NCBI GenBank assembly: GCA_964463915.1
Contig: CAYXEH010000001.1
Coordinates: 3,293-67,292 of the forward strand
Length of the DNA stretch: 64,000 bases
Source of the DNA: an uncultured Bacteroidales bacterium
GTDB lineage: Bacteria > Bacteroidota > Bacteroidia > Bacteroidales > UBA7960
Reading direction: 5' to 3'
The position numbers and the translations under genes were made by a program. A model generated the notes under the pieces. The model ran no database searches. It saw only the letters and a list, made by a program, of their open reading frames with translations, and was not told the origin of the DNA. Each line of letters opens with the position of its first letter. Position 1 is the stretch's first letter. Of the stretch, positions 1 to 16,544 are shown one piece after another.

Positions 1-58
1 GGATATTCACACCCCCCGCCAGGACAAGGCATACACTTCCGCATCGCCTGATCAGGTT

Positions 59-3000
59 TTGACCATCAGCCAGGAAGAGATCCAAAAGCTGCTGCGTGAA
101 AAAAAGGAACGTCTGAAAGAACTGGGAGCCATCCATCAGACAACCAATATTCTGAAGGAAGAAAAGCCCATCCCGGAAACGTTGCAGCAAATCACAAAAG
201 TACTTCCTCCCGCATGGCAACACCCGGAAGATGCAGCGGCCCGGATCAGGTATGGCGACCAGGTATTTCTCAGCAGGGCAAGATTTGAGGAAACCCCCTG
301 GGTGCAACGCAAAACATTTGAAACCATCGACGGCAAGGAAGGTGCCATTGAAGTGTTTTATCAAAAAGAGTACCCGGAAGAGGAAGAGGGTCCGTTTTTT
401 ATTGAAGAACGGCAATTGATCAACAATCTGAGCAGCCTGATCACCGGGCACCTCAATACACGCATCGGGAAAGAGCTGCTGCAAAAGGAAAATCCGGCCA
501 GACAAGAAACCGAGGCCCTGCCTGCCGCAAGAACCCACTCCGCAATGAGCCGGCGGCTGCTGCAGAAATTTCTCAACAAACACAATTCCGACCGCGACAT
601 TTACCACGACCTGATGCAGTACAAGGTCCGTGAAATCCTGCTTGTGGCCAACCTGTATGACGCTTACATCATTGAAGAAGAGGGTCGGTTTTTTGAACAG
701 GTGACCGGAGAATATCATCAGTTAAATCTTTCTTCTGCCCCGCGCATCACAGGCGTATCTACCCCTGAAGAAGCCCTGGAGAAATTACAGGAGAAACATT
801 TTGATATGGTAATTGTTATGATGGGAGTGGAAAAATCAACCCCCATCCAGCTGAGCCGTATCATCAAGCAGATTTACAACAACATCCCCATTTTTATGTT
901 GCTGAACAACAACAGCGACATTGCCCTGTTTGAAGACGGTAAAAAGCCCATCACCTCTATTGATAAGGTGTTTGTATGGAATGGTGACTCCAAGGTTTTC
1001 CTGGCCATGGTCAAATACAATGAGGACAGGAGAAATGTGGAGAATGACACAAAAATTGGGATGGTACAGGTGATCTTGCTGGTCGAAGATTCCGCAAAAT
1101 ATTACTCCCGGTACCTTCCCATATTGTACTCCATTGTAATTGAACAAACCCAGCACCTGATCGAGGAAGTCAACACCGATGAACTCTACAAGCTACTCAA
1201 AATGCGGGTCAGGCCCAAAATTTTGCTTGCGTCTACCTATACGGAGGCCATTAACCTGTTCAATCAATATAAGGACAACATGCTTTGCCTTATTTCGGAT
1301 GTAAAATTTGAGAAGGATGGTGAAATGGACAACAGGGCAGGGCTGAAACTGATGGAGTATGCCAAGCACTCCACCCCAAATCTCCCCACGGTGCTCCAGT
1401 CGTCTGACCCGGAAAATGCCACCGAAGCCTATAAACTGCAAAGTACTTTCATCAATAAAAATTCGGATACCCTTAAACAGGATTTGCAGAGTTTTATCAA
1501 CTATTACCTTGGATTCGGGCATTTTATCTATAAGGATGAAACCGGTCGCCGCGACATTGCCGTGGCCCGCTCAATGAAAGAATTCCGCACCCACCTGAAG
1601 ACCATTCCGGAAAAGTCCCTGCTCTATCATGCGAAAAAAGACCATTTTTCACATTGGCTCATGGCCAGGGGAGAAATTCAGATCGCACGACGCATTAAAC
1701 CACTGAAAGTGGCTGATTTCAAATCTCCCGGCAGCCTGCGCCAATACCTGATTGATGTCATTGACGAATGCATCCATGACAAGCAGCGTGGAAAGGTGAT
1801 CAATTATGAGGAATCTGCCCTGCTAGACGACACCAATATCGTGAGTCTGTCGCCGGGCTCACTGGGAGGCAAAGGGCGTGGCCTGGCTTTCATCAACATG
1901 ATCATCAATAGCTTTAACTTCATTGAACTGGTGGCTGATATCCGGATCTCAACGCCTCGTACATCCATCATCGGCACCGAAGAGTTTGAACGCTTTATTC
2001 ACAACAATAATCTGTACAACGAAATATACGGTGAAACGGATTATGACAAAATCAAAACCCTGTTCCTGAGCGGACACCTGACCCCTACCCTGCGTAAACG
2101 CCTTAAAACATACCTTTCGGTAAATCATAAACCATTGGCCATACGGTCATCCAGTTTGTTTGAGGATTCATTGATGCAGCCTTTTGCCGGGATTTTTGAT
2201 ACTTTTCTGCTCCCAAACAACCATCCTGATCTTGAGGTTCGGCTCAAACAGACCATGGATGCCATCAGGCTGGTGTACGCCTCTATCTTCTCCCCCACGG
2301 CCCAGTCTTACTTCAAAGCGGTGAATTATAAAATCGAAGAGGAAAAGATGGCGGTGGTGATACAGGAAGTGGTCGGCCATAAATATGATGGCTTTTTTTA
2401 CCCGCATATCAGTGGCGTGGCACAGTCTTACAATTTTTATCCTTATTCTTATATGAAGCCGGAAGAGGGCTTCGCTTCCATAGCCATGGGTTTGGGCAAA
2501 TATGTGGTGGAAGGGGAAAAGACCTATCGGTTTTCCCCGGTTCATCCTCAACTGGAGATGTATACTCCAAAAGAGTTGTTCAAAAATTCACAGGTTCATT
2601 TCTATGCCGTGGATCTGCACAAGAAAGAGCTGAACCTGCTTGACGGGGAGGATGCCGGGCTTACCAAGCTGGAGATCGATCAGGCAGAAAAACATGGCAC
2701 CCTGAAGCACTGCGCATCGGTTTACGATTTCAATAGTGAGCGGACAATACCAGGAATTACGGATGAAGGCCCCCGCGTGGTTAACTTTGCAAACATCCTC
2801 AAGTACGACTACATTCCGCTGGCCAAATCAATTGAAACCATTCTGGATATTATTTCAGAATCGATGGGAACGCCTATCGAGATGGAATTTGCCATTGATC
2901 TGAATAAAGACAGGGAAGGACACGCTTCTTTCTATTTACTGCAGATCAAGCCCCTGATCAAGAACATCATCGAAACGGACATCAATATCGACAATATCGA

Positions 3001-3550
3001 CAATGAACGGCTGCTGCTTTACAGTGAAAACGGCATGGGCAATGGACGGATCAACGGCCTGCAGGACGTAGTGTTTGTGGACCCGGAACGCTTTGACAAA
3101 CTGAAAACAGAAAAGATCAGGGACGAGATTGATGAAATCAATACCACCATGGCCCAACAGGACAGAAAGTATGTTTTGGTCGGACCGGGAAGATGGGGAA
3201 CACGCGACCGCTTTATCGGGATCCCGGTGAACTGGTCACAGATATCCAATGCACGCATTATTGTGGAAGTAAGCATGGAGGACTTTCCTCTTGATGCCTC
3301 CCTGGGTTCACACTTTTTCCATAACGTGATTTCCATGAATGTGGGCTATTTCTCAGTGAAGCACAACGACCTGATCGATTTCATCGATTGGGATAAGCTA
3401 AAAGATGCCCCCATCATCAGTGAAAAAAAATACGTAAAACACATCCGTTTCAATAAACCGCTGGAAGTGGTCATGGACGGAAAAAAGCGGGCTGCCCTGA
3501 TCTATCACCAGGAAAACGGAACCAATAAACAAGCAAGCGACCAGGAATGA
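59..3550 (+). CDS. Multidomain signalling/ATP-grasp protein: N-terminal sensor-like module, pseudo-receiver, receiver (REC), PEP/pyruvate-binding (PPDK_N-type) domain and a conserved unknown C-terminal module. Possibly 5'-truncated by the window edge.
   Basis: Long ORF. The track start at 59 is TTG and the frame stays open back to position 2. ATP-grasp signatures: SLGGKGRGLAFIN, LAIRSSSLFEDSLMQPFAGIFDT, EEKMAVVIQE, SGVAQSYNFYP. REC-like: ILLVEDS...CLISDVKF...VLQSSD...FINK. An earlier receiver-like segment lacks the acidic pocket (LLVANLYD, DMVIVMMG). No GG-TSHAA phosphohistidine motif is present. Confidence 0.8.
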   Translation: MTISQEEIQKLLREKKERLKELGAIHQTTNILKEEKPIPETLQQITKVLPPAWQHPEDAAARIRYGDQVFLSRARFEETPWVQRKTFETIDGKEGAIEVFYQKEYPEEEEGPFFIEERQLINNLSSLITGHLNTRIGKELLQKENPARQETEALPAARTHSAMSRRLLQKFLNKHNSDRDIYHDLMQYKVREILLVANLYDAYIIEEEGRFFEQVTGEYHQLNLSSAPRITGVSTPEEALEKLQEKHFDMVIVMMGVEKSTPIQLSRIIKQIYNNIPIFMLLNNNSDIALFEDGKKPITSIDKVFVWNGDSKVFLAMVKYNEDRRNVENDTKIGMVQVILLVEDSAKYYSRYLPILYSIVIEQTQHLIEEVNTDELYKLLKMRVRPKILLASTYTEAINLFNQYKDNMLCLISDVKFEKDGEMDNRAGLKLMEYAKHSTPNLPTVLQSSDPENATEAYKLQSTFINKNSDTLKQDLQSFINYYLGFGHFIYKDETGRRDIAVARSMKEFRTHLKTIPEKSLLYHAKKDHFSHWLMARGEIQIARRIKPLKVADFKSPGSLRQYLIDVIDECIHDKQRGKVINYEESALLDDTNIVSLSPGSLGGKGRGLAFINMIINSFNFIELVADIRISTPRTSIIGTEEFERFIHNNNLYNEIYGETDYDKIKTLFLSGHLTPTLRKRLKTYLSVNHKPLAIRSSSLFEDSLMQPFAGIFDTFLLPNNHPDLEVRLKQTMDAIRLVYASIFSPTAQSYFKAVNYKIEEEKMAVVIQEVVGHKYDGFFYPHISGVAQSYNFYPYSYMKPEEGFASIAMGLGKYVVEGEKTYRFSPVHPQLEMYTPKELFKNSQVHFYAVDLHKKELNLLDGEDAGLTKLEIDQAEKHGTLKHCASVYDFNSERTIPGITDEGPRVVNFANILKYDYIPLAKSIETILDIISESMGTPIEMEFAIDLNKDREGHASFYLLQIKPLIKNIIETDINIDNIDNERLLLYSENGMGNGRINGLQDVVFVDPERFDKLKTEKIRDEIDEINTTMAQQDRKYVLVGPGRWGTRDRFIGIPVNWSQISNARIIVEVSMEDFPLDASLGSHFFHNVISMNVGYFSVKHNDLIDFIDWDKLKDAPIISEKKYVKHIRFNKPLEVVMDGKKRAALIYHQENGTNKQASDQE

Positions 3551-6525
3551 CAACTGAACAATCAAAATACCAATACGACGAGAAATTCGCCACCGACACC
3601 TATGAATTTAAGGAGATCTCCTACGAGGACCTGATGCAGAAACGGATCATCAATGTGTTGCTCATATGCAGCAACTATGATGCCTTTATGCTGGAGGAAG
3701 ACGGCCGGATTAATGAAAAGATCTTTCTGGAATACACCTCAAAAAACCTTCGTTACCCCCCCCAGTTCACCCAGGCCAGTTCTTCAGAAGAGGCTTTCCG
3801 CAAACTGGAGGAAAAGGACTATGACCTGGTAATCACCATGCTCAACGTGGGCAGGATCGATTGTTTTGAGATGGCCAAGAAAGTGAAGAAACGTCACCCG
3901 GGTATCCCCATCGTGGTGCTGACCCATTTCTCCAGGGAAGTATCCCTGAAACTTCGCAACGAAGACCTGAGTTCGATCGACTATGTATTCAGCTGGCTGG
4001 GCAACGCAGGGCTTCTGCTCGCTATTATTAAGCTACTGGAAGACAGGATGAATGCGGATTTTGACATCGAAAAAGTGGGGGTACAGGGCATTCTGCTGGT
4101 GGAAGATTCGGTCCGGTATTATTCATCTTATCTGCCTACCATTTATAAGGTGATTTTCGACCAGACCAATGAACTGATGACAGAAGGACTCAATGAGCAC
4201 CGTAAAACCCTGAGAATGCGGGCCCGCCCGAAAATCCTGCTGGCCAAGTCCTACGAGGAGGCCTTATCGCTGTACAAGAAATATAAAGACAACCTGTTAG
4301 GGATTATCTCAGATATCAGCTACGCCAAAGGAGGCAAAAGAGACAACCAGGCCGGGGTCAAGCTGGCCACCCATGTCCGGAAAAAAAACAGTCAGATTCC
4401 CATCCTGCTCCAGTCATCTGAAAAGTGGGATGCCAGGATTAACAAAAACATTGATGTCAGTTTTATTAACAAATATTCCAAAACACTGCTCATTGAACTC
4501 AAGCATTACATTAAGGAAAATTATGGCTTTGGTGATTTTGTTTTTAAAAACAAGGACACAGGCATGGAACTGGGCAGGGCCAATAATCTGCATTCCCTGC
4601 AGGTAAAGATCACCCATGCAGACCCTAAGGTTCTGGAGTACCATGTTTCCAATAATCATTTCTCCAGGTGGCTTAAAGCCCGGGCTCTGTTTTCGATCGC
4701 CAATGTGTTTGCCAAGAAAAGCCGCGATGATTTCAATAATGTGGAAGAGATCAGAAGCTACCTGATCGACACCATTGCCAATTACCGGCGCACAAAAGGC
4801 CGGGGGATCATCGCCAGTCATCTTGACGAATACGCTGTGTTCACCCGTTTGGGTGACGGCCAGCTGGGGGGCAAAGCACGTGGGCTGGCTTTCATTGACT
4901 CGGTGATCCACAAACACAAGATCATGAATCAATGGAATGGTGTGAGTATCTCCATCCCCCGCACTGTGGTACTGACCACTGATATCTTTGATGAATTCAT
5001 GGAGGAAAATGACCTCTACGATTTTGCGCTGTCTGACGTAAGCGATGAGGAAGTACTCAATCGTTTTGTCCAAAGTAAGAGTCCGTCCAGGATGCGCTCC
5101 TACATAAAAGAGATCGTCGACTTTTTTAAATCCCCGCTGGCCATCAGGTCATCCAGCTTGCTGGAAGATAGTCATTACCAGCCTTTTGCCGGGGTCTACT
5201 CCACATACATGATCTCCAATAATCACAACGACCGGAACGTGCGCATACAGCAACTGGACCAGGCCATCAAAAGTGTCTATGCCTCTGTTTTTTATCAGGA
5301 GAGCAAAGCCTATATCGAAGCCACATCCAATGTCATTGATGAAGAGAAAATGGCAGTGGTGATCCAGGAATTATCCGGACGATCCTATGGCAACATGTTT
5401 TATCCCACCATTTCAGGCGTAGCCAGGTCGGTAAACTTCTACCCCATTGAGCCGGAGAAATACGAAGACGGCGTGGCCAACATCGCCTTTGGCCTGGGCA
5501 AAACCATTGTGGATGGGGAGGTCTCTTTCCGCTTCTCGCCCAGGCATCCGCACAAAGCTTTACAGCTGGCCAACACCGATATCGCACTGCGTGACAGCCA
5601 GCGGGAGTTTTACAGCCTGAACCTGGATCCGGAGAAATATCACCCGGCAGTGGACGATTCAGTCAGCCTGAATAAACTCAGCATCCGTAAACTGAAAGGC
5701 TCTTCTTCACTGAAATATGTGGCCTCCACCTTTGATTATGAGGATCAGATCATTCGCGACGGAATCTATGAGGGAGGAACCCTTATCATCACCTTTGCCA
5801 ATGTGTTGAAGCACGGGTCTTTCCCCCTGGCCGATATCCTGAATAAATTGCTTCGCATCGGGCAAAGGGAAATGAACAACCAGGTAGAGATTGAATTTGC
5901 AGTAAGCCTGGATGTGCCCAAAGGTGAAAAACAACAATTTCATTTTCTTCAGATTCGCCCGGTGGTTGAAACACAGGAGAAAAATCAGGTCAAACTCAGT
6001 GCCCATAAAAAGAGCAGCACCCTCGTAATCAGTCATAATGCACTTGGCAATGGCATCATTGAAGGGATTCATGACTTCATTTATGTAAAGCCCGAATCAT
6101 TTGATGCAGCCCATACTGAAAAGATTGCCGAAACCATCGGAAAGTTAAATAAACAATGTCAGCAGGAGAAGAAACACTATATTCTGGCGGGCCCCGGTCG
6201 ATGGGGGTCCAATGACCCCTGGCTCGGCATTCCGGTTAAATGGGCACAAATATCGGCAGCCCGTCTGATCATCGAATCCGGCCTGAGGAATTTCAGGATC
6301 GACCCAAGCCAGGGCACCCATTTCTTCCAGAATCTTACCTCTTTCAGTGTCGGGTATTTCACCATCAACCCTTATATGAATGAAGGACATTATGATGTTG
6401 AGTTTCTCAACAAACAGGAAGCGATTTATGAAGATGAATTTGTCAGACACGTCCGTTTTGACTGCCCCCTCACCGTGAAAATTGACGGCAGCAAAAAGGC
6501 AGGAATTGTACTGAAACCAAGCTAA
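3547..6525 (+). CDS. Paralog of the preceding gene: pseudo-receiver, receiver, PEP/pyruvate-binding ATP-grasp domain and the same unknown C-terminal module, but no N-terminal sensor module.
   Basis: ATG at 3547 overlaps the upstream stop (ATGA). Motifs: ILLVEDSVRYYSSYLP, GIISDISY, QLGGKARGLAFID, LAIRSSSLLEDSHYQPFAGVYSTY, EEKMAVVIQE, SGVARSVNFYP. C-terminal ILAGPGRWGSNDPWLGIPVKWAQIS and SQGTHFFQN match LVGPGRWGTRDRFIGIPVNWSQIS and LGSHFFHN in the first paralog. Confidence 0.85.
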   Translation: MTTEQSKYQYDEKFATDTYEFKEISYEDLMQKRIINVLLICSNYDAFMLEEDGRINEKIFLEYTSKNLRYPPQFTQASSSEEAFRKLEEKDYDLVITMLNVGRIDCFEMAKKVKKRHPGIPIVVLTHFSREVSLKLRNEDLSSIDYVFSWLGNAGLLLAIIKLLEDRMNADFDIEKVGVQGILLVEDSVRYYSSYLPTIYKVIFDQTNELMTEGLNEHRKTLRMRARPKILLAKSYEEALSLYKKYKDNLLGIISDISYAKGGKRDNQAGVKLATHVRKKNSQIPILLQSSEKWDARINKNIDVSFINKYSKTLLIELKHYIKENYGFGDFVFKNKDTGMELGRANNLHSLQVKITHADPKVLEYHVSNNHFSRWLKARALFSIANVFAKKSRDDFNNVEEIRSYLIDTIANYRRTKGRGIIASHLDEYAVFTRLGDGQLGGKARGLAFIDSVIHKHKIMNQWNGVSISIPRTVVLTTDIFDEFMEENDLYDFALSDVSDEEVLNRFVQSKSPSRMRSYIKEIVDFFKSPLAIRSSSLLEDSHYQPFAGVYSTYMISNNHNDRNVRIQQLDQAIKSVYASVFYQESKAYIEATSNVIDEEKMAVVIQELSGRSYGNMFYPTISGVARSVNFYPIEPEKYEDGVANIAFGLGKTIVDGEVSFRFSPRHPHKALQLANTDIALRDSQREFYSLNLDPEKYHPAVDDSVSLNKLSIRKLKGSSSLKYVASTFDYEDQIIRDGIYEGGTLIITFANVLKHGSFPLADILNKLLRIGQREMNNQVEIEFAVSLDVPKGEKQQFHFLQIRPVVETQEKNQVKLSAHKKSSTLVISHNALGNGIIEGIHDFIYVKPESFDAAHTEKIAETIGKLNKQCQQEKKHYILAGPGRWGSNDPWLGIPVKWAQISAARLIIESGLRNFRIDPSQGTHFFQNLTSFSVGYFTINPYMNEGHYDVEFLNKQEAIYEDEFVRHVRFDCPLTVKIDGSKKAGIVLKPS

Positions 6526-6636
6526 ATTATTTTGTTCTTTTCGTTTGGTTTATATACAAATAAGGTATAAATTCGCTACCGAATTGCTAATTAATTAACA
6601 GCAGTTGATTTATTCATTTTTTTAAATCACCCTATT

Positions 6637-7974
6637 ATGAATTTAGAAAAAATAATGGCAGATCTGGAGCGTAAGAATCCAGGCGAAAAAGAGTTCTTGC
6701 AGGCAGCAAGGGAAGTTTTGGAAACCATCATCGACGTGGTGGAAGAAAACCCAAAATACCAGGCTGCCAATATTATTGAACGGATCACCGAACCGGATCG
6801 CGTGATCTCCTTTAAAGTGGAATGGGTTGATGACAAGGGTAACGTTCAGGTAAACCGTGGCTTCCGCGTTCAGTTTAACAACGCCATCGGTCCTTACAAA
6901 GGAGGTTGCCGTTTCCACCCAAGTGTTACACTGAGCGGACTGAAATTCCTGGGCTTTGAGCAGATCTTCAAAAACAGTCTTACCACATTGCCTATGGGCG
7001 GTGCAAAAGGCGGAAGTGATTTCAACCCCAAGGGCAAATCACAGGCTGAGATCATGCGATTCTGCCAGGCATTCATGGCCGAACTTTACAAGTATATCGG
7101 TCCAGACACCGACATTCCTGCCGGTGACATCGGCGTAGGGGGTCGCGAGATCGGCTATATGTATGGTATGTACAAGAAACTGGTAGGCGAACACACCGGC
7201 ACCTTTACCGGTAAGGGACGCAACTGGGGCGGCAGCCTCATTCGCCCCGAAGCCACAGGTTTCGGTGCGGTTTATTTTGCCGAGGAAATGCTGAAGACCA
7301 AAGGTGAGAAGCTTACAGGTAAAACCGTTGCCCTCTCAGGTTTTGGTAACGTTACCTGGGGTGCAGCACTCAAGGCCACCCAGCTTGGAGCAAAAGTTTT
7401 AACCATCAGTGGACCTGACGGATATGTATACGACCCAGATGGCATTTCAGGTGAAAAGATCGATTATTTGCTGGAGCTGCGTGCCTCCAACCAGGACATC
7501 GTCAAACCATACACCTATGAATTCCCCAACGCCCAGTTCTTTGAAGGCAAGCGTCCCTGGGAACAAAAGGTAGACATTGCCATGCCTTGCGCCATTCAGA
7601 ACGAACTGGATGAAGAAGATGCCAAAAACCTGGTAAATAACGGGGTAATTGCCATTTCGGAAGGCGCCAACATGCCCTGTACAGCAGAAGCTGTAGAGAT
7701 CATCCAGGAAGCAAAGGTTCTCTATGGTCCCGGTAAGGCAGCCAACGCAGGTGGTGTAGCGACTTCCGGTCTGGAACAAACACAAAACGCCATGAAACTG
7801 AACTGGCCGGCAGAAGAAGTAGAAGAAAAACTGCATGAAATCATGAAGAACATCCATGAAGCATGCAAGAAATATGGTCAGGAAGAAGACGGGTATATCA
7901 ACTATGTAAAAGGTGCCAACGTGGCCGGCTTTATTAAGGTTGCCGATGCCATGATCGATCAGGGCGTAATCTGA
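6637..7974 (+). CDS. gdhA: NADP-specific glutamate dehydrogenase
   Basis: 445 aa, full-length hexameric GDH pattern: KGGCRFHPSV, LPMGGAKGGSDFNPKG (active-site Lys region), dinucleotide fold SGFGNVTWGAA. ATG start at 6637. Confidence 0.95.
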   Translation: MNLEKIMADLERKNPGEKEFLQAAREVLETIIDVVEENPKYQAANIIERITEPDRVISFKVEWVDDKGNVQVNRGFRVQFNNAIGPYKGGCRFHPSVTLSGLKFLGFEQIFKNSLTTLPMGGAKGGSDFNPKGKSQAEIMRFCQAFMAELYKYIGPDTDIPAGDIGVGGREIGYMYGMYKKLVGEHTGTFTGKGRNWGGSLIRPEATGFGAVYFAEEMLKTKGEKLTGKTVALSGFGNVTWGAALKATQLGAKVLTISGPDGYVYDPDGISGEKIDYLLELRASNQDIVKPYTYEFPNAQFFEGKRPWEQKVDIAMPCAIQNELDEEDAKNLVNNGVIAISEGANMPCTAEAVEIIQEAKVLYGPGKAANAGGVATSGLEQTQNAMKLNWPAEEVEEKLHEIMKNIHEACKKYGQEEDGYINYVKGANVAGFIKVADAMIDQGVI

Positions 7975-8018
7975 TCCGGGCTATAATCGCATAAGCGATA
8001 CCTGAACCCAAATAAGCA

Positions 8019-8053
8019 AAAGAGCCGGACGGAAATACCGTTCGGCTTTTTTT
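8019..8053 (+). terminator. Rho-independent terminator after gdhA
   Basis: agccggacgg / ccgttcggct stem with one G-T pair and a 5-nt loop, followed by a T-run (ctttttttatt), about 45 nt after the gdhA stop. Confidence 0.7.
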
Positions 8054-8109
8054 ATTCATTCCAACCCAGCGGAAACCTTAACTTCGTGGTGCAGTATTAA
8101 TACCCGTTC

Positions 8110-10341
8110 ATGAATCCTGGGAAAGAACTTGCATCAAGGTTTATCAACAGCACAGGCTGTCATGTATTTCTGACAGGGAAAGCTGGAACCGGGAAAACCA
8201 CCTTCCTGAGGGAATTAGTTGGTACTACCCACAAAAAAACAATCGTAGCAGCCCCCACGGGCATAGCATCCATCAATGCCGGCGGAGTCACCCTTCATTC
8301 CCTGCTTCAGCTTCCATTCGGGGCCTTCTGCCCAACGGAGGATTTGCCGGGAGGATACCCCATCCAAACGGAAATTTACACCTCAAAAAGCCTCCTGCGA
8401 AACAGCAGGTTTTTTGAGGCCAAACGAAGGCTGCTGCGTGAGATGGAACTGCTGATTATTGATGAGGTCAGTATGCTGCGGGCAGATACCCTTGATGCCA
8501 TTGATACCATCCTGCGTCATGTAAGGCGTATAAGCCATAGACCATTTGGCGGTGTACAGCTTCTTTTTATAGGTGACCTGCTGCAACTGCCCCCAGTAGT
8601 AAAAAAACAGGAATGGGCATTACTGAAGGCCCATTACCCCAGTCTGCATTTTTTTCATGCCAGGGCCTTGAAGCAGAACCCACCTCTTTACATTGAATTC
8701 GAGCACATATACCGTCAGCATGACCCTGTTTTCATCAACCTGCTGGCAAAGCTCAGGGAAAACAAAATGAACAGAAAGGATTTAGCTCTACTGAACCGCC
8801 ATGTAAAGCACGGGTTTGATCCGCTGGAAGAATCCGGTCAAATTTTCCTTACCACACACAACCATAAAGCAGACCTTATCAACAGCAGGGCCCTGGAAAA
8901 ACTTAAGGGTCAACCGCTGTATTTTGATGCGGCAATTACTGGTGATTTTAGTAAAGCTCTTTATCCGGCAGAGTATTCCCTGCAGCTCAAGATAGGCGCC
9001 CAGGTAATGTTTATCAAAAATGACCACACCGGCGAACAGCGATATTTCAACGGCAAAATTGGCACCATCGAAGAACTCAGCAAAGAAAGGATCGTGGTAG
9101 GTTTCCCGGATGGTTCTGCTCCTGCTGAGGTAGAACGTTACACCTGGGAAAACAAAAAATTCAACCTTAACAGGGTAAACAACGAAATTGAGGAAAAGGT
9201 GACCGGAACCTTTTCACACTATCCCATAAAACTGGCCTGGGCAGTTACCGTGCACAAAAGCCAGGGGCTGACATTTGACAAAGCGGTAATTGATGTTTCC
9301 GGGGCATTTGCACCGGGGCAGATCTATGTGGCATTGTCAAGACTCAGGGGCCTTGAAGGACTTGTACTGAGCGAACCGGTCCCGGAACAACAGTTTGCTC
9401 AGGATGACCATGTCAAATTTTTTTCAGCAGGCAAAAGCCCGGTGAAAGAATTAAAACAAAAGCTTCAATCAGAATCCAGGCACTTCATTGAACAAGAACT
9501 TTCAGATACTTTCAATTTTGATCAGTTGCAGGAAAACCTCCGGCACCACCTACGGGGATATGACAAAAAAGAAGGTCGTTCAGTAAAGCAGTCAAACAAG
9601 TCATGGGCGGAGAATTTAATCCGCGAATTCCTGCCCGTTAAAACGATTGCTGACCGTTTTTCAAACCAGTTAAAACGCGACTTAAGTAATCATGAACTCG
9701 TCTACATAAGAAGCAGGGTACATAAGGCGAATGACTATTTTTCTCCTTTGCTGAGGAAGGTTTCTGAACAAATTTTCGAGCACATTTCCAGTGTCAGTGA
9801 ACAAAGCGGCACAAAAGGGTATGTGCGTGAATTACGTGAGTTGGAATCCGGATTCCATGCGCGGGTTCAAAAGTTACACAAAATGGAATCCCTGATCACG
9901 GCCATACTGGAAAATACAGAACCAACCCGCGACAATACACAGAATCCCGGGCTGATCAGGGATCGGGAAGATATGCTGGAAGAATTCAGCAAAGGCATTC
10001 TTGCCAAAAACAAACAGAAATCCCCCCGGCCGGCTAAAGGAAAACCAGCCAAAACACCATCCGCCGAGGTAAGTCTCCAGCTTTTCCTGGATGGAAAGAG
10101 TATGGAGGAAATTATTGAGATCCGGTCTCTTGCCTACAGCACCATTCAGTCGCATATGGTCAGTTGCGTGCAAAAAGGTCTCATTGATGCAGAACGGTTT
10201 GTGGAAAAAGAAAAAATGACACAAATCATGAAAGCCTCAGAAGCCATAGGAAGCAGGAAAGCCGGCGACATCATGGCCGTACTTGGAGATGAATTCTCAT
10301 TTGCCGAAGTGAGGATGGTAATGGCAGGAAAAAACGAATAA
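8110..10341 (+). CDS. PIF1/RecD-like SF1 helicase with C-terminal helix-turn-helix-like domain
   Basis: Walker A LTGKAGTGKTTFL, Walker B LLIIDEVSML, LLFIGDLLQLPPV, late SF1 motifs VHKSQGLTFD and YVALSRL. The C-terminal ~90 aa (SLAYSTIQSHMVSCVQKGLID) resembles the HTH tail seen on bacterial Pif1-like helicases. Confidence 0.8.
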   Translation: MNPGKELASRFINSTGCHVFLTGKAGTGKTTFLRELVGTTHKKTIVAAPTGIASINAGGVTLHSLLQLPFGAFCPTEDLPGGYPIQTEIYTSKSLLRNSRFFEAKRRLLREMELLIIDEVSMLRADTLDAIDTILRHVRRISHRPFGGVQLLFIGDLLQLPPVVKKQEWALLKAHYPSLHFFHARALKQNPPLYIEFEHIYRQHDPVFINLLAKLRENKMNRKDLALLNRHVKHGFDPLEESGQIFLTTHNHKADLINSRALEKLKGQPLYFDAAITGDFSKALYPAEYSLQLKIGAQVMFIKNDHTGEQRYFNGKIGTIEELSKERIVVGFPDGSAPAEVERYTWENKKFNLNRVNNEIEEKVTGTFSHYPIKLAWAVTVHKSQGLTFDKAVIDVSGAFAPGQIYVALSRLRGLEGLVLSEPVPEQQFAQDDHVKFFSAGKSPVKELKQKLQSESRHFIEQELSDTFNFDQLQENLRHHLRGYDKKEGRSVKQSNKSWAENLIREFLPVKTIADRFSNQLKRDLSNHELVYIRSRVHKANDYFSPLLRKVSEQIFEHISSVSEQSGTKGYVRELRELESGFHARVQKLHKMESLITAILENTEPTRDNTQNPGLIRDREDMLEEFSKGILAKNKQKSPRPAKGKPAKTPSAEVSLQLFLDGKSMEEIIEIRSLAYSTIQSHMVSCVQKGLIDAERFVEKEKMTQIMKASEAIGSRKAGDIMAVLGDEFSFAEVRMVMAGKNE

Positions 10342-10431
10342 ACCGAATTTCTATATAAATTTTATTGATATTTACAAGTTTTTCTTCCAAAAAAATATAT
10401 ACTATTTCTTTTGGCTGACCGATGATTTTTT

Positions 10432-10995
10432 ATGTATTATTGCCTCGAAAAACGACAATTCACGGAATTTATGCGCATTCAACGAATTCAACCCACCACG
10501 CCTCAGCAGGAAACCACCCGGGAATCGGTTGACCTGACTTTGATGGATGAACTACTGGAGAAATACAAAAACCAAAAAGGGAATTTAATTCCCTTACTCC
10601 AGGGAACCCAGGACATATATGGCTATCTCCCGAAAGCAGCATTTGCAAGAATTCACCGGGCAACCGGGCTGGAGCTGAATGAAATGTACGGGGTTGCCAC
10701 ATTCTATGCCCAGTTCAGGCTGGAACCCGCCGGCAAGTATATTGTGAAAATGTGCCATGGCACCGCATGCCACGTACAAAATGTGACTGCCATCACAGAT
10801 GAGATACTGGATACTTTAGGGATTAAGGACGGGGAAACCACCAGCGACGGGATCCTCACTGTAGAGACCGTAGCCTGCCTCGGCTGTTGTTCACTGGCGC
10901 CCGTAATGATGATTGGAGATGAAACTTACGGAAAACTTACCCCGAAAGAAGCCGTCCGCATCATCAAAGAAATACGCAGAAACGAGAACGGATAA
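10432..10995 (+). CDS. NuoE/HydC-like thioredoxin-like [2Fe-2S] ferredoxin subunit
   Basis: GNLIPLLQGTQDIYGYLP, CHGTACHV, CLGCCSLAPVMMI give the four-Cys pattern of the 24-kDa NuoE family. The start is uncertain: alternative Met codons at 10471 and 10543. Confidence 0.85.
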   Translation: MYYCLEKRQFTEFMRIQRIQPTTPQQETTRESVDLTLMDELLEKYKNQKGNLIPLLQGTQDIYGYLPKAAFARIHRATGLELNEMYGVATFYAQFRLEPAGKYIVKMCHGTACHVQNVTAITDEILDTLGIKDGETTSDGILTVETVACLGCCSLAPVMMIGDETYGKLTPKEAVRIIKEIRRNENG

Positions 10996-11015
10996 ACACA
11001 AAAACTATATTGACA

Positions 11016-12794
11016 ATGGGAAACACAAAGGTTATTGTGGGATTGGGTAGCTGCGGAATTGCAGCAGGAGCCAACAAGACCTACAATGAGTTTCAGCGCA
11101 TCATGAAAGCTGACAAGCTGGATTTCGAATTGAAAAAAACCAGCTGTATCGGCATGTGCTACAGGGAACCTTTGGTAGAGATCATCGACGACAATGGTAC
11201 CTACCTTTATGGGGAAGTAAACCAGGAAAGGGTCGAAGACATCATCGATAAGCACATCAAAAAATTCTCACCCATTCCCGAGTATATTGTACAATCAGAC
11301 AAGTATCCTTCAAAAGACCAGGCCTTTTTTGACGGACAGGTGAAGATCAGCCTGCGTAATTGCGGGCACATCGACCCGGAATCCATCGAAGAATACGAGG
11401 CGAGAGACGGATACGAAGCGATTCGTAAGATCGCCAGGGAAAAGCTCAGTCCTGCATCCGTCATTCAACAGGTACTTGATTCAGGGATCCGCGGGAGGGG
11501 TGGCGGAGGATTTCCCACAGGCTTAAAGTGGAAGTTCGCGCACAACAACAAGTCTGACAAAAAATATGTGATCTGCAATGCCGACGAAGGTGACCCCGGT
11601 GCCTTCATGGACCGCTCCATCCTGGAGGGTGACCCGCATGGGGTACTCGAGGGCATGATCATATGTGGCTATTCAATCGGGGCAAGTGAAGGATACATTT
11701 ATTGCCGGGCAGAGTATCCCCTGGCCATCAAGCGGCTCAACCTCGCCATTAAACAGGCGCATGAGAAGGGTTACCTGGGCAAAGACCTCTTCGGCATCAA
11801 AGGCTTTCACTTTGACCTGAAGATCAAAGAGGGTGCCGGAGCCTTTGTTTGTGGGGAGGAAACTGCCCTGATCGCCTCCATTGAAGGGGCCCGCGGCATG
11901 CCCCGAAGGCGCCCGCCATTTCCTGCGGAAGCAGGATTATGGAAACATCCCACCAACATTAACAACGTAGAGACATTTATCAATATTCCCTGGATCATTC
12001 ATCAGGGGCCCCAGGCCTATGCGCAGTACGGCACCGAGAAAAGCAAAGGCACCAAGGTGTTTGCCCTCACCGGGAAGATCCGTCACGGAGGGCTGGTGGA
12101 AGTCCCCATGGGAATCACCATCAAGGACATTATTTATAAACTGGGAGGCGGTATCACCGGAGACAAGAAATTCAAAGCAGTACAGCTTGGAGGCCCTTCC
12201 GGCGGATGCATTCCGGAATATCTTTCACATACCCGGGTGGATTATGACTCGGTCAATGCCACCGGTGCCATTATGGGATCAGGCGGAATGGTGGTTATGG
12301 ATGAAACAACCTGCGTCGTGGACATTGCAAAATTCTTCCTTGATTTCACCCAGAAAGAATCCTGCGGGAAATGTACCTTCTGCCGGCTGGGCACCAAAAG
12401 AATGCTGGAGATCCTTACCCGGATCACAGAGGGAGAAGGTCGCGAAGGCGACATTGAAATGCTGGAGCAACTGGCGGAAACAATTAAAGACAGTTCTTTG
12501 TGCGGATTGGGGCAAACCGCGCCCAACCCCGTTCTGACTACCCTTAAGTACTACCGGGATGAGTATGAGGCGCACATCCGCGACAGGAAGTGCCCGGCGC
12601 TCAGCTGTAAGAAATTGCTGACTTACACAGTGATTGAAGAGAATTGTACCGGTTGTACCGTTTGCGCCAAAGGTTGCCCGGTAAATGCCATTGAAGGCGA
12701 AAGGAAACAAATCCATCATATTGACCAGGATATATGCATCCAATGTGGAGTTTGTTTTACGCGCTGTAAATTCGATGCCATCAAATTGTCTTAA
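11016..12794 (+). CDS. NuoF/HydB-like NAD(H)- and FMN-binding subunit with extra N-terminal [2Fe-2S]-like and C-terminal 2x[4Fe-4S] domains
   Basis: GRGGGGFPTGLKWKF, ICNADEGDPGAF, ESCGKCTFCRLG, SLCGLGQTAPNP, plus ferredoxin motifs CTGCTVCAKGCP and CIQCGVCFTRC. The track start at 11010 is TTG; the first ATG is at 11016. Confidence 0.9.
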   Translation: MGNTKVIVGLGSCGIAAGANKTYNEFQRIMKADKLDFELKKTSCIGMCYREPLVEIIDDNGTYLYGEVNQERVEDIIDKHIKKFSPIPEYIVQSDKYPSKDQAFFDGQVKISLRNCGHIDPESIEEYEARDGYEAIRKIAREKLSPASVIQQVLDSGIRGRGGGGFPTGLKWKFAHNNKSDKKYVICNADEGDPGAFMDRSILEGDPHGVLEGMIICGYSIGASEGYIYCRAEYPLAIKRLNLAIKQAHEKGYLGKDLFGIKGFHFDLKIKEGAGAFVCGEETALIASIEGARGMPRRRPPFPAEAGLWKHPTNINNVETFINIPWIIHQGPQAYAQYGTEKSKGTKVFALTGKIRHGGLVEVPMGITIKDIIYKLGGGITGDKKFKAVQLGGPSGGCIPEYLSHTRVDYDSVNATGAIMGSGGMVVMDETTCVVDIAKFFLDFTQKESCGKCTFCRLGTKRMLEILTRITEGEGREGDIEMLEQLAETIKDSSLCGLGQTAPNPVLTTLKYYRDEYEAHIRDRKCPALSCKKLLTYTVIEENCTGCTVCAKGCPVNAIEGERKQIHHIDQDICIQCGVCFTRCKFDAIKLS

Positions 12795-12821
12795 GCACTA
12801 AAATATACAACCTGCTGACCT

Positions 12822-15800
12822 ATGAGTAAGCTCAATATCATCATAAACGGAAAGATCTTTCAGGGATACCAGGGAGAAACCATCCTGGAAATGTCTCGTC
12901 GCCTCAATATCGAAATACCCACGCTTTGCAACGACGACAGGCTGGAGCCTTTCTCCTCCTGCTATTTGTGTGTGGTGGAGGTGGAAGGAATGCGTGGCCT
13001 GCAACCTGCCTGCTCAACCAGGGTAACGGAGGGAATGCGTATTGAAACAGATAATGAAAGGGTGCGCAAGTCAAGGCAGTTTGCCCTGGATCTACTGGTA
13101 AGTAACCATTATGCCGATTGCGTCCCCCCTTGTAAGGAAGAGTGTCCTGCAGGAGTAGATGTGCAGGGATATATCTCCATGATTAGCAAGGGGAAATACA
13201 GGGAAGCCGTTGAACTGATCAAACAGACCAATCCTCTGCCGGCCATATGCGGCAGGGTTTGCGTCCGGCCGTGTGAGGATGTCTGCCGTCGCAACCTACT
13301 GGAAGAAGTGGGTGTTGGAATTGATTACCTGAAACGCTACACCTCTGACATCGACCTTTTCTCTCCGGATCGTTTCATGCCTGAAGTAAAACCGGATACG
13401 GGGAAGAATGTGGCCGTAATCGGAGCAGGGCCCGGAGGGCTCACCGCAGCTTACTTCCTGGCCAAAGAAGGGCACCGGGTGGAAATTTTCGAGGCTCATA
13501 AACATGCCGGCGGGATGCTTCGTTACGGAATCCCTCCCTATCGTCTTCCCAACGACATTATCGACAAGGAGGTTGAAGGGATTACCAGGCTGGGGGTAAA
13601 GATCCACTATGAACAAAAACTCGGTGACAACCTGAGTTATCAAACACTGAAAGACCAGTTCGACTCGGTAATCCTGGGGATCGGCTCACAGAAAGGAACC
13701 GGGATTGGATGCGAAAACGACGATGCCGGTAATATTTTTTCCGGAATCGACTTTTTAAGGAACATGGAGGCGACCGGGCAGAAGTATGACTTCACCGGAA
13801 AAAGGGTGGCAGTGATTGGTGGGGGAAACACAGCCATGGACTGTTGCCGGACAGCGAAACGCTGTGGGGCTGAAGAGGTAACGGTCATTTACCGGCGTAC
13901 TGAAAAGGAAATGCCCGCAAACCCCATTGAGATTCATGAATCCAAACTGGAAGGGATCAATTATATGTTTCTGACTGCCCCGGCCAAAGTGAATAAAGAT
14001 GACGAGGGCAATCTGGAATCCCTGACCTGCATACGAATGCAGCTCGGAGAACCTGACGCTTCGGGAAGAAGGCGGCCGGTTAAAATTGAAGGTTCCGAAT
14101 TTGATGTAGAATTGGATTACATCCTGGCAGCCATCGGTCAAAAAACAGTGGTCGATTTTATTGAGGATATCAGCAAGCACTCAGATAAAGAACTGAAACT
14201 CAACAAATGGGGCGACATTGATGCTGCTCAGGGTACTTTACAAACTTCCATTGACAGTGTGTTTGCCTGTGGAGACGGGGTCACAGGCCCGGCCACCCTG
14301 ATAGAAGCCATCGCCCAAGGGAGGATTGCTGCACAAAGTTGCAATAAATTCCTTGGACAACAACCGGTGACTCCAGCAGACAAAGAGTTTCTGAGCAAAA
14401 AAGACAACTTTGAAAAACAACAGAAAGAAGAATACCAGGGATATTTCCAGGCACAGCTCAGGGAGGAAATGCCTACCCTGGATCCGGATAAAAGAAACAA
14501 TTTTGAGGAGGTGGAAAGGGGCTATTCTGATGAGGCAGCCCAAAATGAAACGCAACGTTGCCTGGAGTGTGGTTGTTCTGAACTCCATACCTGCGACCTG
14601 AAACAATATGCCACCACCTACGGGGCGGAGCAGAAAAAATTCGGGGGAGATTATAAAAAGCACCACGTAGACTTTTCCCACCCTTATGTGGAAATTGACA
14701 ACAACAAGTGTATCCTGTGCTCCCGTTGCATCAGGATTTGCTCCGAAATGAACGGCGCCAATGCACTGGGCCTGGTAAACCGGGGGTTCGAAACCTATGT
14801 GGCTCCAAGTATGGATGGTCCTTTATCGGCCACAAACTGCGACTCATGCGGTTTATGTATTGATACCTGCCCCACCGGGGCAATCACGGAAAACGTTCCT
14901 TTTAAAACCATGCCGGTCAAAACAGACATGACCACTACAATCTGCAATTATTGCTCTATCGGATGTACGGTTTCCTATCACCATAAAGACGGGTTTGCAG
15001 GAAGGGCCACAGGAAGTGCAGGACTGGTGAACAAGGACGGCAGTATCTGCCGGCAAGCCAAGTTCGGCTACCGTTACCTGAATGAGTCCGGTCGCCTTAC
15101 CCATCCTATGAAGAAAGTAAATGGAAGTTTTGAAGCGATCAGTTTCAGGGAAGCATGGAAGCTCATCAAGGAGAAGGTTGCAGCAGTCCGGCCCGAAGAA
15201 AACGGGGTATATATCGGGGCAAGACTGACCAATGAAGAGATCTACCTGCTTCAGAAGCTGGCAAGGGCCGGATTGGGCACGGCTAATGTGGATAGTTTCC
15301 ATTATATGGGCCGCGGAAACGGTTACCTGGAAAACAGTCGTCACGTGGTCCCGATGGATCAGATCCGTCAGGCCAAAAAAATCTATTTTCTGGACAGTGA
15401 GATAAGCAAGGACAACCCGGTAGCAGGGTTTTATGCCGTCAATACCGCTTTTAAGGAAGCCGCAAAGCTGGAGTTGATCACCACAAGGGAAAATAGCAGC
15501 ATGGCGCATAAGGCTGATATCGTTACCGGTATTCAGTCCCCTTACCATTTTGTCAAGGCAACCATCCATTTTATCCTGTCCAATAAAATGGAGAATGGGG
15601 TGTACCTTGATGATCACTGCATGGATTTTGACAGCTACCGTAAGAAAGCACTTTCAGAAAGCTTTGACAAACTGATCCGGGAGGCCGGATGTACGCCGGG
15701 ACAAATTGCCCGCTTTGCAGAGGAATTCAACAGGGAAGCCCAGGCACTGATCATGTTTTCTGAGAAGGACCTTTCGGCCAACACCTGCCAGGAATTACGG

Positions 15801-16544
15801 AACCTTTGTCATCTGACCGGGAAATCCGGCAAAACGGGAACCGGCCTTCTCCCACTTAAGGAAAAGAACAATGCACAGGGGCTCTTTGATATGGGTGCAA
15901 ACTCAAAACTTGCACCAGGAGGAGGGGACATCCGCAATGACAAAGTGAGGGCCTCCCTTGCTGAGGCATGGAAAGTAAGCAACCTGCCCGCCGAAGCAAC
16001 AGAGGAACAGTGGGAACTCCTTAATTCAGGTAAAATTAAAAATGCATTTATCTTCGGAGAAGACCCCCTGGGATGCGCCATCAATAAAGAGGAGATGGAA
16101 AGAGCCCTGGACAAAACCGGGTTTCTGGTGGTACAGGATCTGTTTATGAGTGAAACAGCCGGTAAAGCCGACCTGGTGTTGCCGGCATCCCTGCATATGG
16201 AGATCGGTGGCAGTTTTACCAATACCCAGCGATTCATCCAGCAATTTGAGGCCAATTGGTCAGGGCCGTTGAAAAAGAACAGCTTTGACCAGCTACTCAA
16301 TTTGCTTGCTTTATTTGATGTGAAAGCTGATTACGAAGGACCGGCTGAGGTTATGCTGGAAACAGCTGCCATGATGCAGGCTGCCGCTGAATCTGCCAGT
16401 GGCCCATGCAGGCTGGTACACACAGACAATGACAACCAGGACAGGAAATTTGATTATGGATGCGACATCCTGACCAAAAAATTCGAAACAGCCTGGAATG
16501 AATCATTTAACAACATTAAAGAAACAAGCTATGAAAACGTTTAA
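12822..16544 (+). CDS. 1240-aa fusion oxidoreductase: 2Fe-2S ferredoxin, GltD/NfnB-like NADPH-FAD module, NuoG/HydA-type Fe-S domains and a degenerate formate-dehydrogenase-like (molybdopterin oxidoreductase fold) domain
   Basis: aa 1-80 CNDD..CYLC..ACST. aa 85-160 CVPPCKEECPAG..AICGRVCVRPCEDVC (GltD N-terminal Fe-S). aa 195-510 VIGAGPGGL, VIGGGNTAMDC, ACGD. aa 575-690 CLECGC..C, CILCSRCIRIC, CDSCGLCIDTCP. aa 705-720 ICNYCSIGC. The remainder aligns by eye to E. coli FdhH but reads NVDSFHYMGRG where FdhH has NVDCCARVUHG. Confidence 0.85.
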   Translation: MSKLNIIINGKIFQGYQGETILEMSRRLNIEIPTLCNDDRLEPFSSCYLCVVEVEGMRGLQPACSTRVTEGMRIETDNERVRKSRQFALDLLVSNHYADCVPPCKEECPAGVDVQGYISMISKGKYREAVELIKQTNPLPAICGRVCVRPCEDVCRRNLLEEVGVGIDYLKRYTSDIDLFSPDRFMPEVKPDTGKNVAVIGAGPGGLTAAYFLAKEGHRVEIFEAHKHAGGMLRYGIPPYRLPNDIIDKEVEGITRLGVKIHYEQKLGDNLSYQTLKDQFDSVILGIGSQKGTGIGCENDDAGNIFSGIDFLRNMEATGQKYDFTGKRVAVIGGGNTAMDCCRTAKRCGAEEVTVIYRRTEKEMPANPIEIHESKLEGINYMFLTAPAKVNKDDEGNLESLTCIRMQLGEPDASGRRRPVKIEGSEFDVELDYILAAIGQKTVVDFIEDISKHSDKELKLNKWGDIDAAQGTLQTSIDSVFACGDGVTGPATLIEAIAQGRIAAQSCNKFLGQQPVTPADKEFLSKKDNFEKQQKEEYQGYFQAQLREEMPTLDPDKRNNFEEVERGYSDEAAQNETQRCLECGCSELHTCDLKQYATTYGAEQKKFGGDYKKHHVDFSHPYVEIDNNKCILCSRCIRICSEMNGANALGLVNRGFETYVAPSMDGPLSATNCDSCGLCIDTCPTGAITENVPFKTMPVKTDMTTTICNYCSIGCTVSYHHKDGFAGRATGSAGLVNKDGSICRQAKFGYRYLNESGRLTHPMKKVNGSFEAISFREAWKLIKEKVAAVRPEENGVYIGARLTNEEIYLLQKLARAGLGTANVDSFHYMGRGNGYLENSRHVVPMDQIRQAKKIYFLDSEISKDNPVAGFYAVNTAFKEAAKLELITTRENSSMAHKADIVTGIQSPYHFVKATIHFILSNKMENGVYLDDHCMDFDSYRKKALSESFDKLIREAGCTPGQIARFAEEFNREAQALIMFSEKDLSANTCQELRNLCHLTGKSGKTGTGLLPLKEKNNAQGLFDMGANSKLAPGGGDIRNDKVRASLAEAWKVSNLPAEATEEQWELLNSGKIKNAFIFGEDPLGCAINKEEMERALDKTGFLVVQDLFMSETAGKADLVLPASLHMEIGGSFTNTQRFIQQFEANWSGPLKKNSFDQLLNLLALFDVKADYEGPAEVMLETAAMMQAAAESASGPCRLVHTDNDNQDRKFDYGCDILTKKFETAWNESFNNIKETSYENV

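Follow-up and report, generated by a model that had tools for sequence, protein, structure and literature searches.

Putative receiver-gated ATP-grasp enzymes without a canonical swivel domain recur beside glutamate dehydrogenase genes in Bacteroidota

Introduction

Enzymes built on the PPDK_N ATP-grasp domain, such as phosphoenolpyruvate (PEP) synthase and pyruvate, phosphate dikinase (PPDK), as a rule pair it with a swivel domain carrying a GG-TSH motif. Signal-controlled ATP-using enzymes also act at the glutamate/2-oxoglutarate junction, in the PknG-GarA/OdhI system of Actinobacteria and in the adenylylation of glutamine synthetase by GlnE; to our knowledge, the Bacteroidota are without the classical enterobacterial regulatory scheme. 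Here we describe two adjacent paralogous genes, A and B, in a stretch of 64,000 nucleotides (hereafter, the window) from an uncultured Bacteroidales bacterium (assembly GCA_964463915.1, contig CAYXEH010000001.1, positions 3,293 to 67,292, forward strand), where they lie directly upstream of a glutamate dehydrogenase (GDH) gene, gdhA. The family to which they belong breaks the pairing of PPDK_N with the swivel domain. Judged from domain content and residue conservation, A and B are receiver-gated PPDK_N enzymes with a new C-terminal catalytic or carrier module, and the family is uncharacterised.

The family is large (2246 clusters at 50% identity) and common in Bacteroidota, including the major human gut Bacteroides, and it travels under generic or wrong names: 'PEP/pyruvate-binding domain-containing protein', 'CheY-like chemotaxis protein', 'phosphoenolpyruvate synthase', 'pyruvate, phosphate dikinase', and 'hypothetical protein' all occur in the sources. 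Our full-text searches of the literature found no characterisation or mention of this architecture; an earlier note on the window, which had allowed that the architecture might belong to an enzyme family already characterised, thus gains no such family from that source. The adjacency to GDH makes these proteins a concrete candidate for post-translational control of the glutamate/2-oxoglutarate junction in Bacteroidota. In Bacteroides, the assimilatory NAD(P)H GDH and the catabolic NADH GDH respond oppositely to organic nitrogen (PMC4539542).

Domain architecture of A and B

The genes concerned are as follows:

2..3550, plus strand: gene A, the long paralog (frame open at the 5' edge of the window; orthologue alignment)
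3547..3550, plus strand: ATGA overlap, the start of B on the stop of A (sequence read directly)
3547..6525, plus strand: gene B, 992 residues, the widespread and usually single-copy type (list of open reading frames)
6637..7974, plus strand: gdhA, a PRK14030-type glutamate dehydrogenase (NCBIfam PRK14030, 819 bits)

The earlier note had described two large co-directional open reading frames (ORFs) of the same architecture that overlap at 3547-3550, with gdhA directly downstream on the same strand, and the ORF list, the sequence itself, BLASTP, and the NCBIfam match to gdhA all agree with it. The overlap reads ATGA, the TGA of A being overlapped by the ATG of B, and the two proteins are 38% identical over 970 residues with 10 gaps (A 182-1148 to B 26-988). 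They share a pseudo-receiver (REC1), a true receiver (REC2), a DUF5752-like linker, a PPDK_N ATP-grasp domain, and a C-terminal module of 180 residues; every motif quoted in the note is present in the translations. The domains are given below, with residues of A (D414 and the Pfam ranges, for example) counted from base 59:

2..631, plus strand: A-specific N-terminal domain, a coiled-coil ER.KEL segment and then a small domain ending EGPF..EE..L (conserved in A orthologues)
632..1060, plus strand: pseudo-receiver REC1 of A, with LLVANLYD, no acidic pocket, and Met for Asp (sub-cut-off Pfam Response_reg match at A 226-285)
1067..1507, plus strand: receiver REC2 of A, with a full phospho-acceptor pocket and predicted phospho-Asp D414 at nucleotides 1298-1300 (alignment invariants; BLASTP to B)
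1508..1858, plus strand: DUF5752-like linker of A, holding DHFSHWLMARG (Pfam PF19027 at A 503-576)
1859..2962, plus strand: PPDK_N-type ATP-grasp domain of A (Pfam PF01326 at A 601-968, E 4.2e-40)
2972..3514, plus strand: C-terminal module of A, GPGRWGT ... SLGSHFFHN, with its invariant His at nucleotides 3311-3313 (BLASTP, alignment)
3652..4077, plus strand: pseudo-receiver REC1 of B, with M98 (nucleotides 3838-3840) at the phospho-Asp position (Pfam Response_reg at B 73-131, 37.7 bits; receiver-like strand/helix pattern in the AlphaFold2 model)
4084..4521, plus strand: receiver REC2 of B, with E186/D187, D256 (nucleotides 4312-4314), S290, and K309 (alignment, AlphaFold2 model, Foldseek)
4522..4860, plus strand: linker of B, NHFSRWLKARA, DUF5752-like through homology to A (alignment with A)
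4861..6009, plus strand: PPDK_N ATP-grasp domain of B, with GGKxRG 441-446, RSSS..ED 534-541, E781/E783, and Q802 (Pfam at B 439-821, E 2.4e-41)
6010..6522, plus strand: C-terminal module of B, with GPGRWGS 882-888, E910, S921-x-G-T-H925-F-F, and the His codon at nucleotides 6319-6321 (alignment, AlphaFold2 model)

Residue conservation was taken from an alignment of 75 A- and B-type proteins and is given in B numbering. The first receiver-like segment had been noted to lack the acidic pocket, and it does: M98 is invariant in place of the phospho-Asp, with neither an acidic pair nor the Lys. Because the canonical pocket residues fail in this way, REC1 is by its residues a pseudo-receiver. The second receiver, said to keep the canonical positions, has E186, D187, D256, and K309 invariant and S290/S291 nearly so. 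The Pfam Response_reg matches are weak in both proteins, and both fall on REC1. The (beta-alpha)5 receiver fold is found in the secondary structure of the AlphaFold2 model of B (pLDDT 81, pTM 0.65) and in Foldseek matches to PleD, PhoP, VicR, and other receivers, the tandem-receiver protein PleD being the best match of the whole model (E 1.5e-7); REC2 of B is modelled with a helical insertion after its first helix. The linker of A reaches DUF5752 (PF19027) with 24.8 bits against a cut-off of 23 at partial profile cover (20-107 of 208), that of B with 9.6 bits, and several relatives pass the cut-off. The N-terminal domain of A, which is not present in B, has no Pfam, NCBIfam, or PDB match.

The nucleotide-binding domain recognised in the earlier note as PPDK_N-type is confirmed by the Pfam matches in both proteins, and the ATP-grasp residues GGK443-x-R445-G, R534-S-S, E540-D541, E781-x-E783, and Q802 are invariant in both paralogs. 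Foldseek matches the core of the B model to PPDK 1ggo (E 1e-4); a PDB sequence search returns solely the ATP-grasp domain of rifampicin phosphotransferase, and receiver domains; and NCBIfam gives the ATP-grasp part sub-threshold matches to PigC, PEP synthase, and rifampicin phosphotransferase models. The scores for PEP_synth TIGR01418, 38.4 and 36.2 bits for the two proteins, compare with a cut-off of 739.75. The PEP/pyruvate TIM barrel (PF02896) is absent from the Pfam output of A and B, which end about 180 residues past the ATP-grasp domain, and since neither a canonical swivel phosphohistidine domain nor a TIM barrel is detected by sequence, profile, or structure search, the database name 'PEP synthase' is wrong.

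The C-terminal module and the missing swivel domain

The canonical swivel domain (PF00391) is absent from A and B, as the earlier note had claimed: Pfam finds no match at E<=1 on the full-length proteins, and NCBIfam, the PDB sequence search, profile-profile comparison, and Foldseek concur. Nor could a swivel gene be found in trans, tblastn with the swivel domains of PpsA and PtsI giving no match in the 64-kb window or in our context set of 82 related loci, taken with flanks of up to 10 kb. The Lentisphaeria loci L108 and L109, outside the 82, do have a canonical ptsP, with its PF00391 domain, two genes away from the family gene.

Behind the ATP-grasp domain stands the module, which the note had described as shared by both proteins and unplaced, and which Foldseek and profile searches still leave without a relative. 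Modelled alone from a 29-sequence alignment, B 812-992 forms a compact alpha/beta domain with a beta-sheet extension (pLDDT 88.5, pTM 0.88), in which H925 of 'GTHFF' stands at the start of a short helix that follows a strand. Against PDB folds the best Foldseek match has an E value of 0.045 and a probability of 0.3, no PEP-utilizer domain is listed, and the weak neighbours are generic three-layer alpha/beta domains; a profile search against PDB sequences gave no match, and a Pfam scan of 29 members at E<=10 no relevant match, PF00391 included. That the module is a diverged swivel domain was considered and rejected: hhalign gave probabilities of 0.1-0.2% against swivel profiles built from 2 sequences (E. 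coli PpsA/PtsI) and from 15 diverse plasmid-borne sequences, and Foldseek, Pfam, and the PDB profile search lent no support. By eye, the module is like the PPDK/PpsA swivel in element order, in the His at a helix start, and in a terminal [IM]DGxK..G.[IV].

The signature of the module, G-x-GRWGS ... E ... S-x-G-[ST]-H-F-F with one invariant His, is universal in the family. An exhaustive profile search of 1.84 billion representatives found the 2246 clusters (50% identity) at E<=1e-3 and 586 of them at E<=1e-30; PPDK_N directly precedes the module in every architecture checked, and PF00391 is never present. Divergent double-unit proteins (P0242, P0258, and P0264) keep NG...N...G-x-GRWGS...D...G...E...S-x-G-[ST]-H-F-F...Y in both copies of the module, and the signature His is the sole histidine conserved across the wider family when these are included. 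We infer that, if any residue stands in for the swivel histidine, this His is the obvious one. The statement in the earlier note that the proteins lack a phosphohistidine domain thus stands for the canonical swivel and is too strong as a statement of function, the module having a His that is invariant family-wide.

The three double-unit proteins are 1523-1654 residues long and comprise two PPDK_N plus C-module units each, the first without a receiver. In P0258 and P0264 an A-type N-terminal domain is found between the two PPDK_N units, and in P0242 and P0264 the C-terminal tail resembles, by eye, a Pol-beta-type nucleotidyltransferase (FGS ... D-x-D-L-L). Apparent receiver-less 'variants' of 570-720 residues were set aside, those checked sitting at contig ends and probably being fragments.

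Size of the family and age of the duplication

B has more than 8000 matches, the best 120 of them at 63-95% identity, and A has 4097, the best 120 at 57-93% identity with the N-terminal extension conserved; A orthologues are 1150-1230 residues long and align at 65-93% identity and 98-100% coverage. Members from gut Bacteroides fall into 90%-identity clusters of 2000-5000 sequences each. When a neighbour-joining tree is rooted on receiver-less units, the A-type genes come together in a single clade, sister to all B-type or single-copy genes of Bacteroidales, Flavobacteriia, and Lentisphaerota, so that by this tree the A/B split is older than the divergence of Bacteroidia and Flavobacteriia within the B type. 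The ratio of nonsynonymous to synonymous substitution rates (dN/dS), measured against the orthologues in L004, is 0.044 for A and 0.027 for B. Given the position in the tree and dN/dS values of 0.03-0.04, we conclude that the duplication is old and that both copies, as read from their substitutions, are under strong purifying selection. A lineage-specific recent duplication with one decaying copy, which the earlier note had held out as a possible outcome, is ruled out by the tree, by dN/dS below 0.05, and by the catalytic invariants kept in both copies.

The tandem arrangement itself is conserved only in part, an A gene standing in front of B in 17 of the 82 loci and the B type standing alone in the other 65. 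Since 65 loci carry the B type only, B would function alone in most species, and the heteromer of A and B that had been suggested is by this count neither obligatory nor the general mode. Where both genes are present their junction is always tight; conservation of the ATGA overlap, on which the earlier note had touched, is not found, the overlap recurring only in L004 and L013 and the other loci having gaps of 2-29 nucleotides. The B gene of the window groups with genes from Victivallales and Lentisphaerota, its nearest relatives outside its own clade (63-70% identity), a grouping that suggests movement of the gene between phyla, along with its GDH neighbour.

Genomic context

The GDH neighbour is the most informative conserved feature of the family. 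Of the 82 loci, 31 have a GDH gene, and in 25 (Bacteroidia, Flavobacteriia, and Lentisphaerota) it is no more than 600 bp from the family gene; the linkage, whose conservation across Bacteroidota the earlier note had raised as a question, is found in these 25 loci, across two phyla, and is not universal, 51 loci having no GDH in their flanks. At least five different arrangements (X being the family gene) occur across lineages: i) gdh<- ->A->B->gdh in the clade of the window, where L004, a 95%-identical relative, and L024 show, at a distance of 314 bp upstream of A and so beyond the edge of the window, another GDH in divergent orientation; ii) gdh->X->gdh on one strand in Flavobacteriia (Lutibacter, Gillisia, and Polaribacter); iii) gdh<- ->X in Bacteroides sp., Phocaeicola, Parabacteroides, Paludibacter, and Porphyromonadaceae; iv) X-gdh-X in L041; and v) large-GDH<- ->X <-gdhA in Lentisphaerota (L001, L108/L109), with a 1040-residue GDH divergent upstream and a 445-residue GdhA convergent downstream. 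In about 24 loci the GDH next to the family gene is a PRK14030-type enzyme, a PRK09414 type is the second neighbour in 8, and the PRK14031 type is never adjacent. By our own estimate, direct adjacency would arise by chance in about 0.1% of cases, given 1-3 GDH genes in a genome of a few thousand genes, the loci not being independent.

A second recurrent neighbour, linked to the family gene in one large clade, is a 2-oxoacid:acceptor (2-oxoacid:ferredoxin) oxidoreductase. In 14-15 loci its alpha (TIGR03710, 660 bits) and beta genes immediately precede the family gene in the same orientation; a glutamate racemase gene is often found ahead of them, and in some loci GDH comes after, as in L030 (KorA-KorB-X-gdh). 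The note had seen no histidine kinase in the window, and we agree for the 24 window ORFs of at least 330 residues, none of which has HisKA or HATPase_c; the recurrent gene clusters of the related loci likewise include no kinase gene, individual loci not having been annotated one by one.

A 1996 report by Baggio and Morrison, cited in PMC4539542, is said, to go by its title, to describe trans-acting gene(s) downstream of the B. thetaiotaomicron gdhA that affect GDH activity. That observation is not assignable to the family gene, because in the B. ovatus group the family gene is upstream of and divergent from pepS9-gdhA, an order that does not fit 'downstream of gdhA'. BT1971/BT1972 were also considered as the family gene, wrongly in the case of BT1971, which is a catalase.

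Proposed function

We read A and B, tentatively and at rather less than even confidence, as signal-gated phosphotransfer enzymes whose phosphate would most likely go to the neighbouring GDH or to a partner controlling it; that the family controls or feeds the nitrogen/carbon junction at glutamate/2-oxoglutarate we consider probable. GDH or its controlling factor is ranked first because the family gene is found next to GDH in two phyla and beside GDHs of two size classes, and because regulatory input to the proteins is heavy. An unlinked histidine kinase would phosphorylate REC2 (D256 in B); as with tandem receivers of the PleD type, oligomerisation or the packing of the domains would change, and the catalytic core would thereby be switched on; the ATP-grasp domain would then pass phosphate from ATP to the His of the C-terminal module (H925 in B), in the role of the swivel histidine, and from H925 it would move to an acceptor at the glutamate/2-oxoglutarate node. 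Were that acceptor the adjacent GDH or a partner controlling it, the outcome would be post-translational control responding to a nitrogen or amino-acid signal. Where present, A would add a second sensor input through its N-terminal domain, and may pair with B.

A bolder form of this proposal, which we think unlikely, is that the GRWGS/S-x-G-[ST]-HFF module is a new phosphohistidine carrier that replaces the swivel, in a receiver-gated protein dikinase that switches GDH on and off covalently. If the carrier and the switch both proved real, the family would supply the regulator so far missing in Bacteroidota, the dominant gut Bacteroides included, that acts after translation to set ammonia assimilation against glutamate catabolism.

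We wish to set out what weighs against phosphotransfer to GDH. Neither homology nor a shared fold with swivel domains can be detected for the module, and a catalytic or ligand-binding domain in its own right would account just as well for the many acidic and polar residues that are invariant in it. The 51 loci without GDH in their flanks include several from Bacteroides, Muribaculaceae, and Prevotellaceae, and in the B. ovatus group the family gene is two genes away from gdhA. The locus counts overstate the number of events, because the loci are not phylogenetically independent, and adjacency to GDH would be equally expected of an enzyme directed at a metabolite.

That last point leads to the explanation that we take most seriously beside our own, while doubting it: that A and B are receiver-gated small-molecule dikinases or ligases acting on a metabolite of the glutamate/glutamine/2-oxoglutarate pool, the module serving as substrate-binding and/or histidine domain. 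On this account GDH and the 2-oxoacid oxidoreductase adjoin the family gene since they make or use the metabolite, and the recurrent neighbours, glutamate racemase among them, do all handle glutamate or 2-oxoglutarate. The characterised PPDK_N enzymes other than PEP synthase and PPDK all act on small molecules or glucans; Cj1418, formerly annotated as a PEP synthase, is now an L-glutamine kinase (PMC10971088); B has a weak NCBIfam match to PRK05849 (E 9e-8); and the many invariant polar residues of the module are such as a binding site would have. Yet no conserved adjacent enzyme would use a phosphorylated product, no domain is similar to any known substrate-binding domain, and input as heavy as two receivers, with an extra sensor domain in A, is seen more typically in regulators than in enzymes of a pathway. 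The ordinary identity, PEP synthases or PPDKs with regulatory domains, echoes the 'phosphoenolpyruvate synthase' and 'pyruvate, phosphate dikinase' names that some members bear in the sources; with no swivel, no TIM barrel, and PEP_synth scores of 36-38 bits against 740 it is ruled out, and together with the recent duplication, at odds as that is with a split predating the Bacteroidia/Flavobacteriia divergence of the B type, with dN/dS below 0.05 in both copies, and with the retention of all catalytic invariants, it is scarcely credible.

Two further explanations reassign the invariant His. The module may be a regulatory, oligomerisation, or partner-binding domain (GDH-docking or ligand-sensing, for example), with the ATP-grasp domain acting directly as a ligase or only sensing nucleotide. 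This we find improbable: it would suit the failure of every method used to detect similarity to swivel domains and the generic three-layer alpha/beta fold neighbours, but invariance of S-x-G-[ST]-H-F-F and of the GRWGS loop over 2246 clusters and the divergent variants would be unusual for a docking domain, and the histidine relay is, as general knowledge of the family has it, found in every studied PPDK_N enzyme. Somewhat more improbable still is a non-canonical phosphorelay, in which the ATP-grasp domain and the module His would be an unconventional 'histidine kinase' for the REC2 of the same protein or for a separate response regulator. Such a relay would account for the lack of a linked histidine kinase in the window; an invariant His and an intact receiver Asp do occur in one protein, and in locus L105 an A-like gene of 1524 residues is followed after 15 nucleotides by a REC+GerE regulator. 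The L105 arrangement is a single case, however, orphan response regulators are common, and the receivers are N-terminal, the usual position for input; moreover, the core needs no receiver as substrate, because P0242, P0258, and P0264 have PPDK_N plus C-module units that are free of one. Among these readings we retain, with the reservations given, phosphotransfer to GDH or to a factor controlling it.

Gene boundaries and other features of the loci

The earlier note gave the two ORFs as 1163 and 992 residues, of which the second is right and the first is not. Gene A is listed as 59..3550, but its frame is open from base 2 of the window: there is no in-frame stop in 2..58, and the codons there can be aligned to the N-terminal end of the L004 orthologue (93% identical), which has its ATG 5 codons past the window edge. 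Since the frame is open and these codons align, gene A is cut by the 5' edge of the window, and the true protein should have about 1187-1196 residues. The TTG at 59 is a mechanical artefact as a start of A; ORF starts near window ends are unreliable at face value.

The far end of the gene cluster is marked by one feature:

8018..8052, plus strand: hairpin resembling an intrinsic terminator, with a 15-bp stem and a T run, 3' of gdhA (consensus scan only)

It is the sole strong terminator-like hairpin in 1-8200 and is compatible with a single A-B-gdhA transcript. A sigma-70 promoter scan found fewer sites than in shuffled controls, this consensus being uninformative for Bacteroidota promoters.

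Several further observations concern the surroundings of the family. In the window, 10432-16544 (plus strand) encodes a NuoE-like protein (187 residues), a NuoF-like protein (594 residues), and a fusion protein of 1240 residues that joins 2Fe-2S, GltD-like (Fer4_20 + Pyr_redox_2), Nqo3-type ferredoxin, and molybdopterin-oxidoreductase domains. These three genes also stand directly upstream of the family gene in L007 (3816-9867) and nearby in L024, L032, and L034, and may be a third, redox-related recurrent neighbour. Between gdhA and these genes, 8110-10341 (plus strand) encodes a 743-residue protein with weak N-terminal matches to RecD/RecD2-type helicases (57-59 bits, far below cut-offs) and without a counterpart in the related loci. 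On the minus strand, ORFs of 695 residues (23986-26073) and 406 residues (44433-45653) have no Pfam match at E<=1e-5.

Elsewhere, the Lentisphaeria metagenome-assembled genomes L108/L109 have at 2166-12679 the order ptsP-type gene (GAF + enzyme I, the nitrogen-PTS sensor type), large GDH, family gene, gdhA. In L089 (8114-9996), from the B. ovatus-group genome GCA_040241505.1, genes for an AAA_21/SMC_N ATPase and an HNH nuclease separate the family gene from the S9 peptidase-gdhA pair and look like a small mobile or defence insertion. The 1524-residue A-like protein of L105 (62-5307) has about 600 extra N-terminal residues, the regulator 15 nucleotides downstream is of the NarL type, and the gene order is typical of kinase-regulator pairs.

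Comparison with known systems

A and B share with PEP synthase and PPDK a PPDK_N ATP-grasp domain that has all the conserved ATP/Mg residues and matches 1ggo in Foldseek, but they have neither the PF00391 swivel (GG-x-T-[SC]-H) nor the PF02896 TIM barrel, and they have instead two receivers in front and an unrelated 180-residue module behind. With rifampicin phosphotransferase (RPH; PDB 5hv6, 5fbs), Cj1418, and PigC/RedH they have in common an ATP-grasp domain that comes first and a His-bearing domain at the C-terminal end, and the closest sequence matches of the ATP-grasp part are here (PigC, E 2.6e-16; RPH structures, E 3e-4); Cj1418 shows such a scaffold at work on an amino acid that belongs to this node of metabolism. 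These enzymes differ in keeping a canonical swivel together with a dedicated substrate-binding domain and in being without receivers, and A and B score far below their equivalog cut-offs. Because the swivel and substrate domains are missing, A and B belong to neither group.

PleD, the best structural match, also has one competent and one degenerate receiver ahead of an enzyme domain; in A and B, by contrast, the pseudo-receiver comes first, REC2 has its helical insertion, and the output is an ATP-grasp domain rather than a GGDEF cyclase. To PknG-GarA/OdhI and GlnE there is no relationship of sequence or fold, and the link to GDH is here one of gene context; the analogy is purely functional, and consists in the fact that the GDH and 2-oxoacid oxidoreductase neighbours of the family are the counterparts of the enzymes controlled in those systems.

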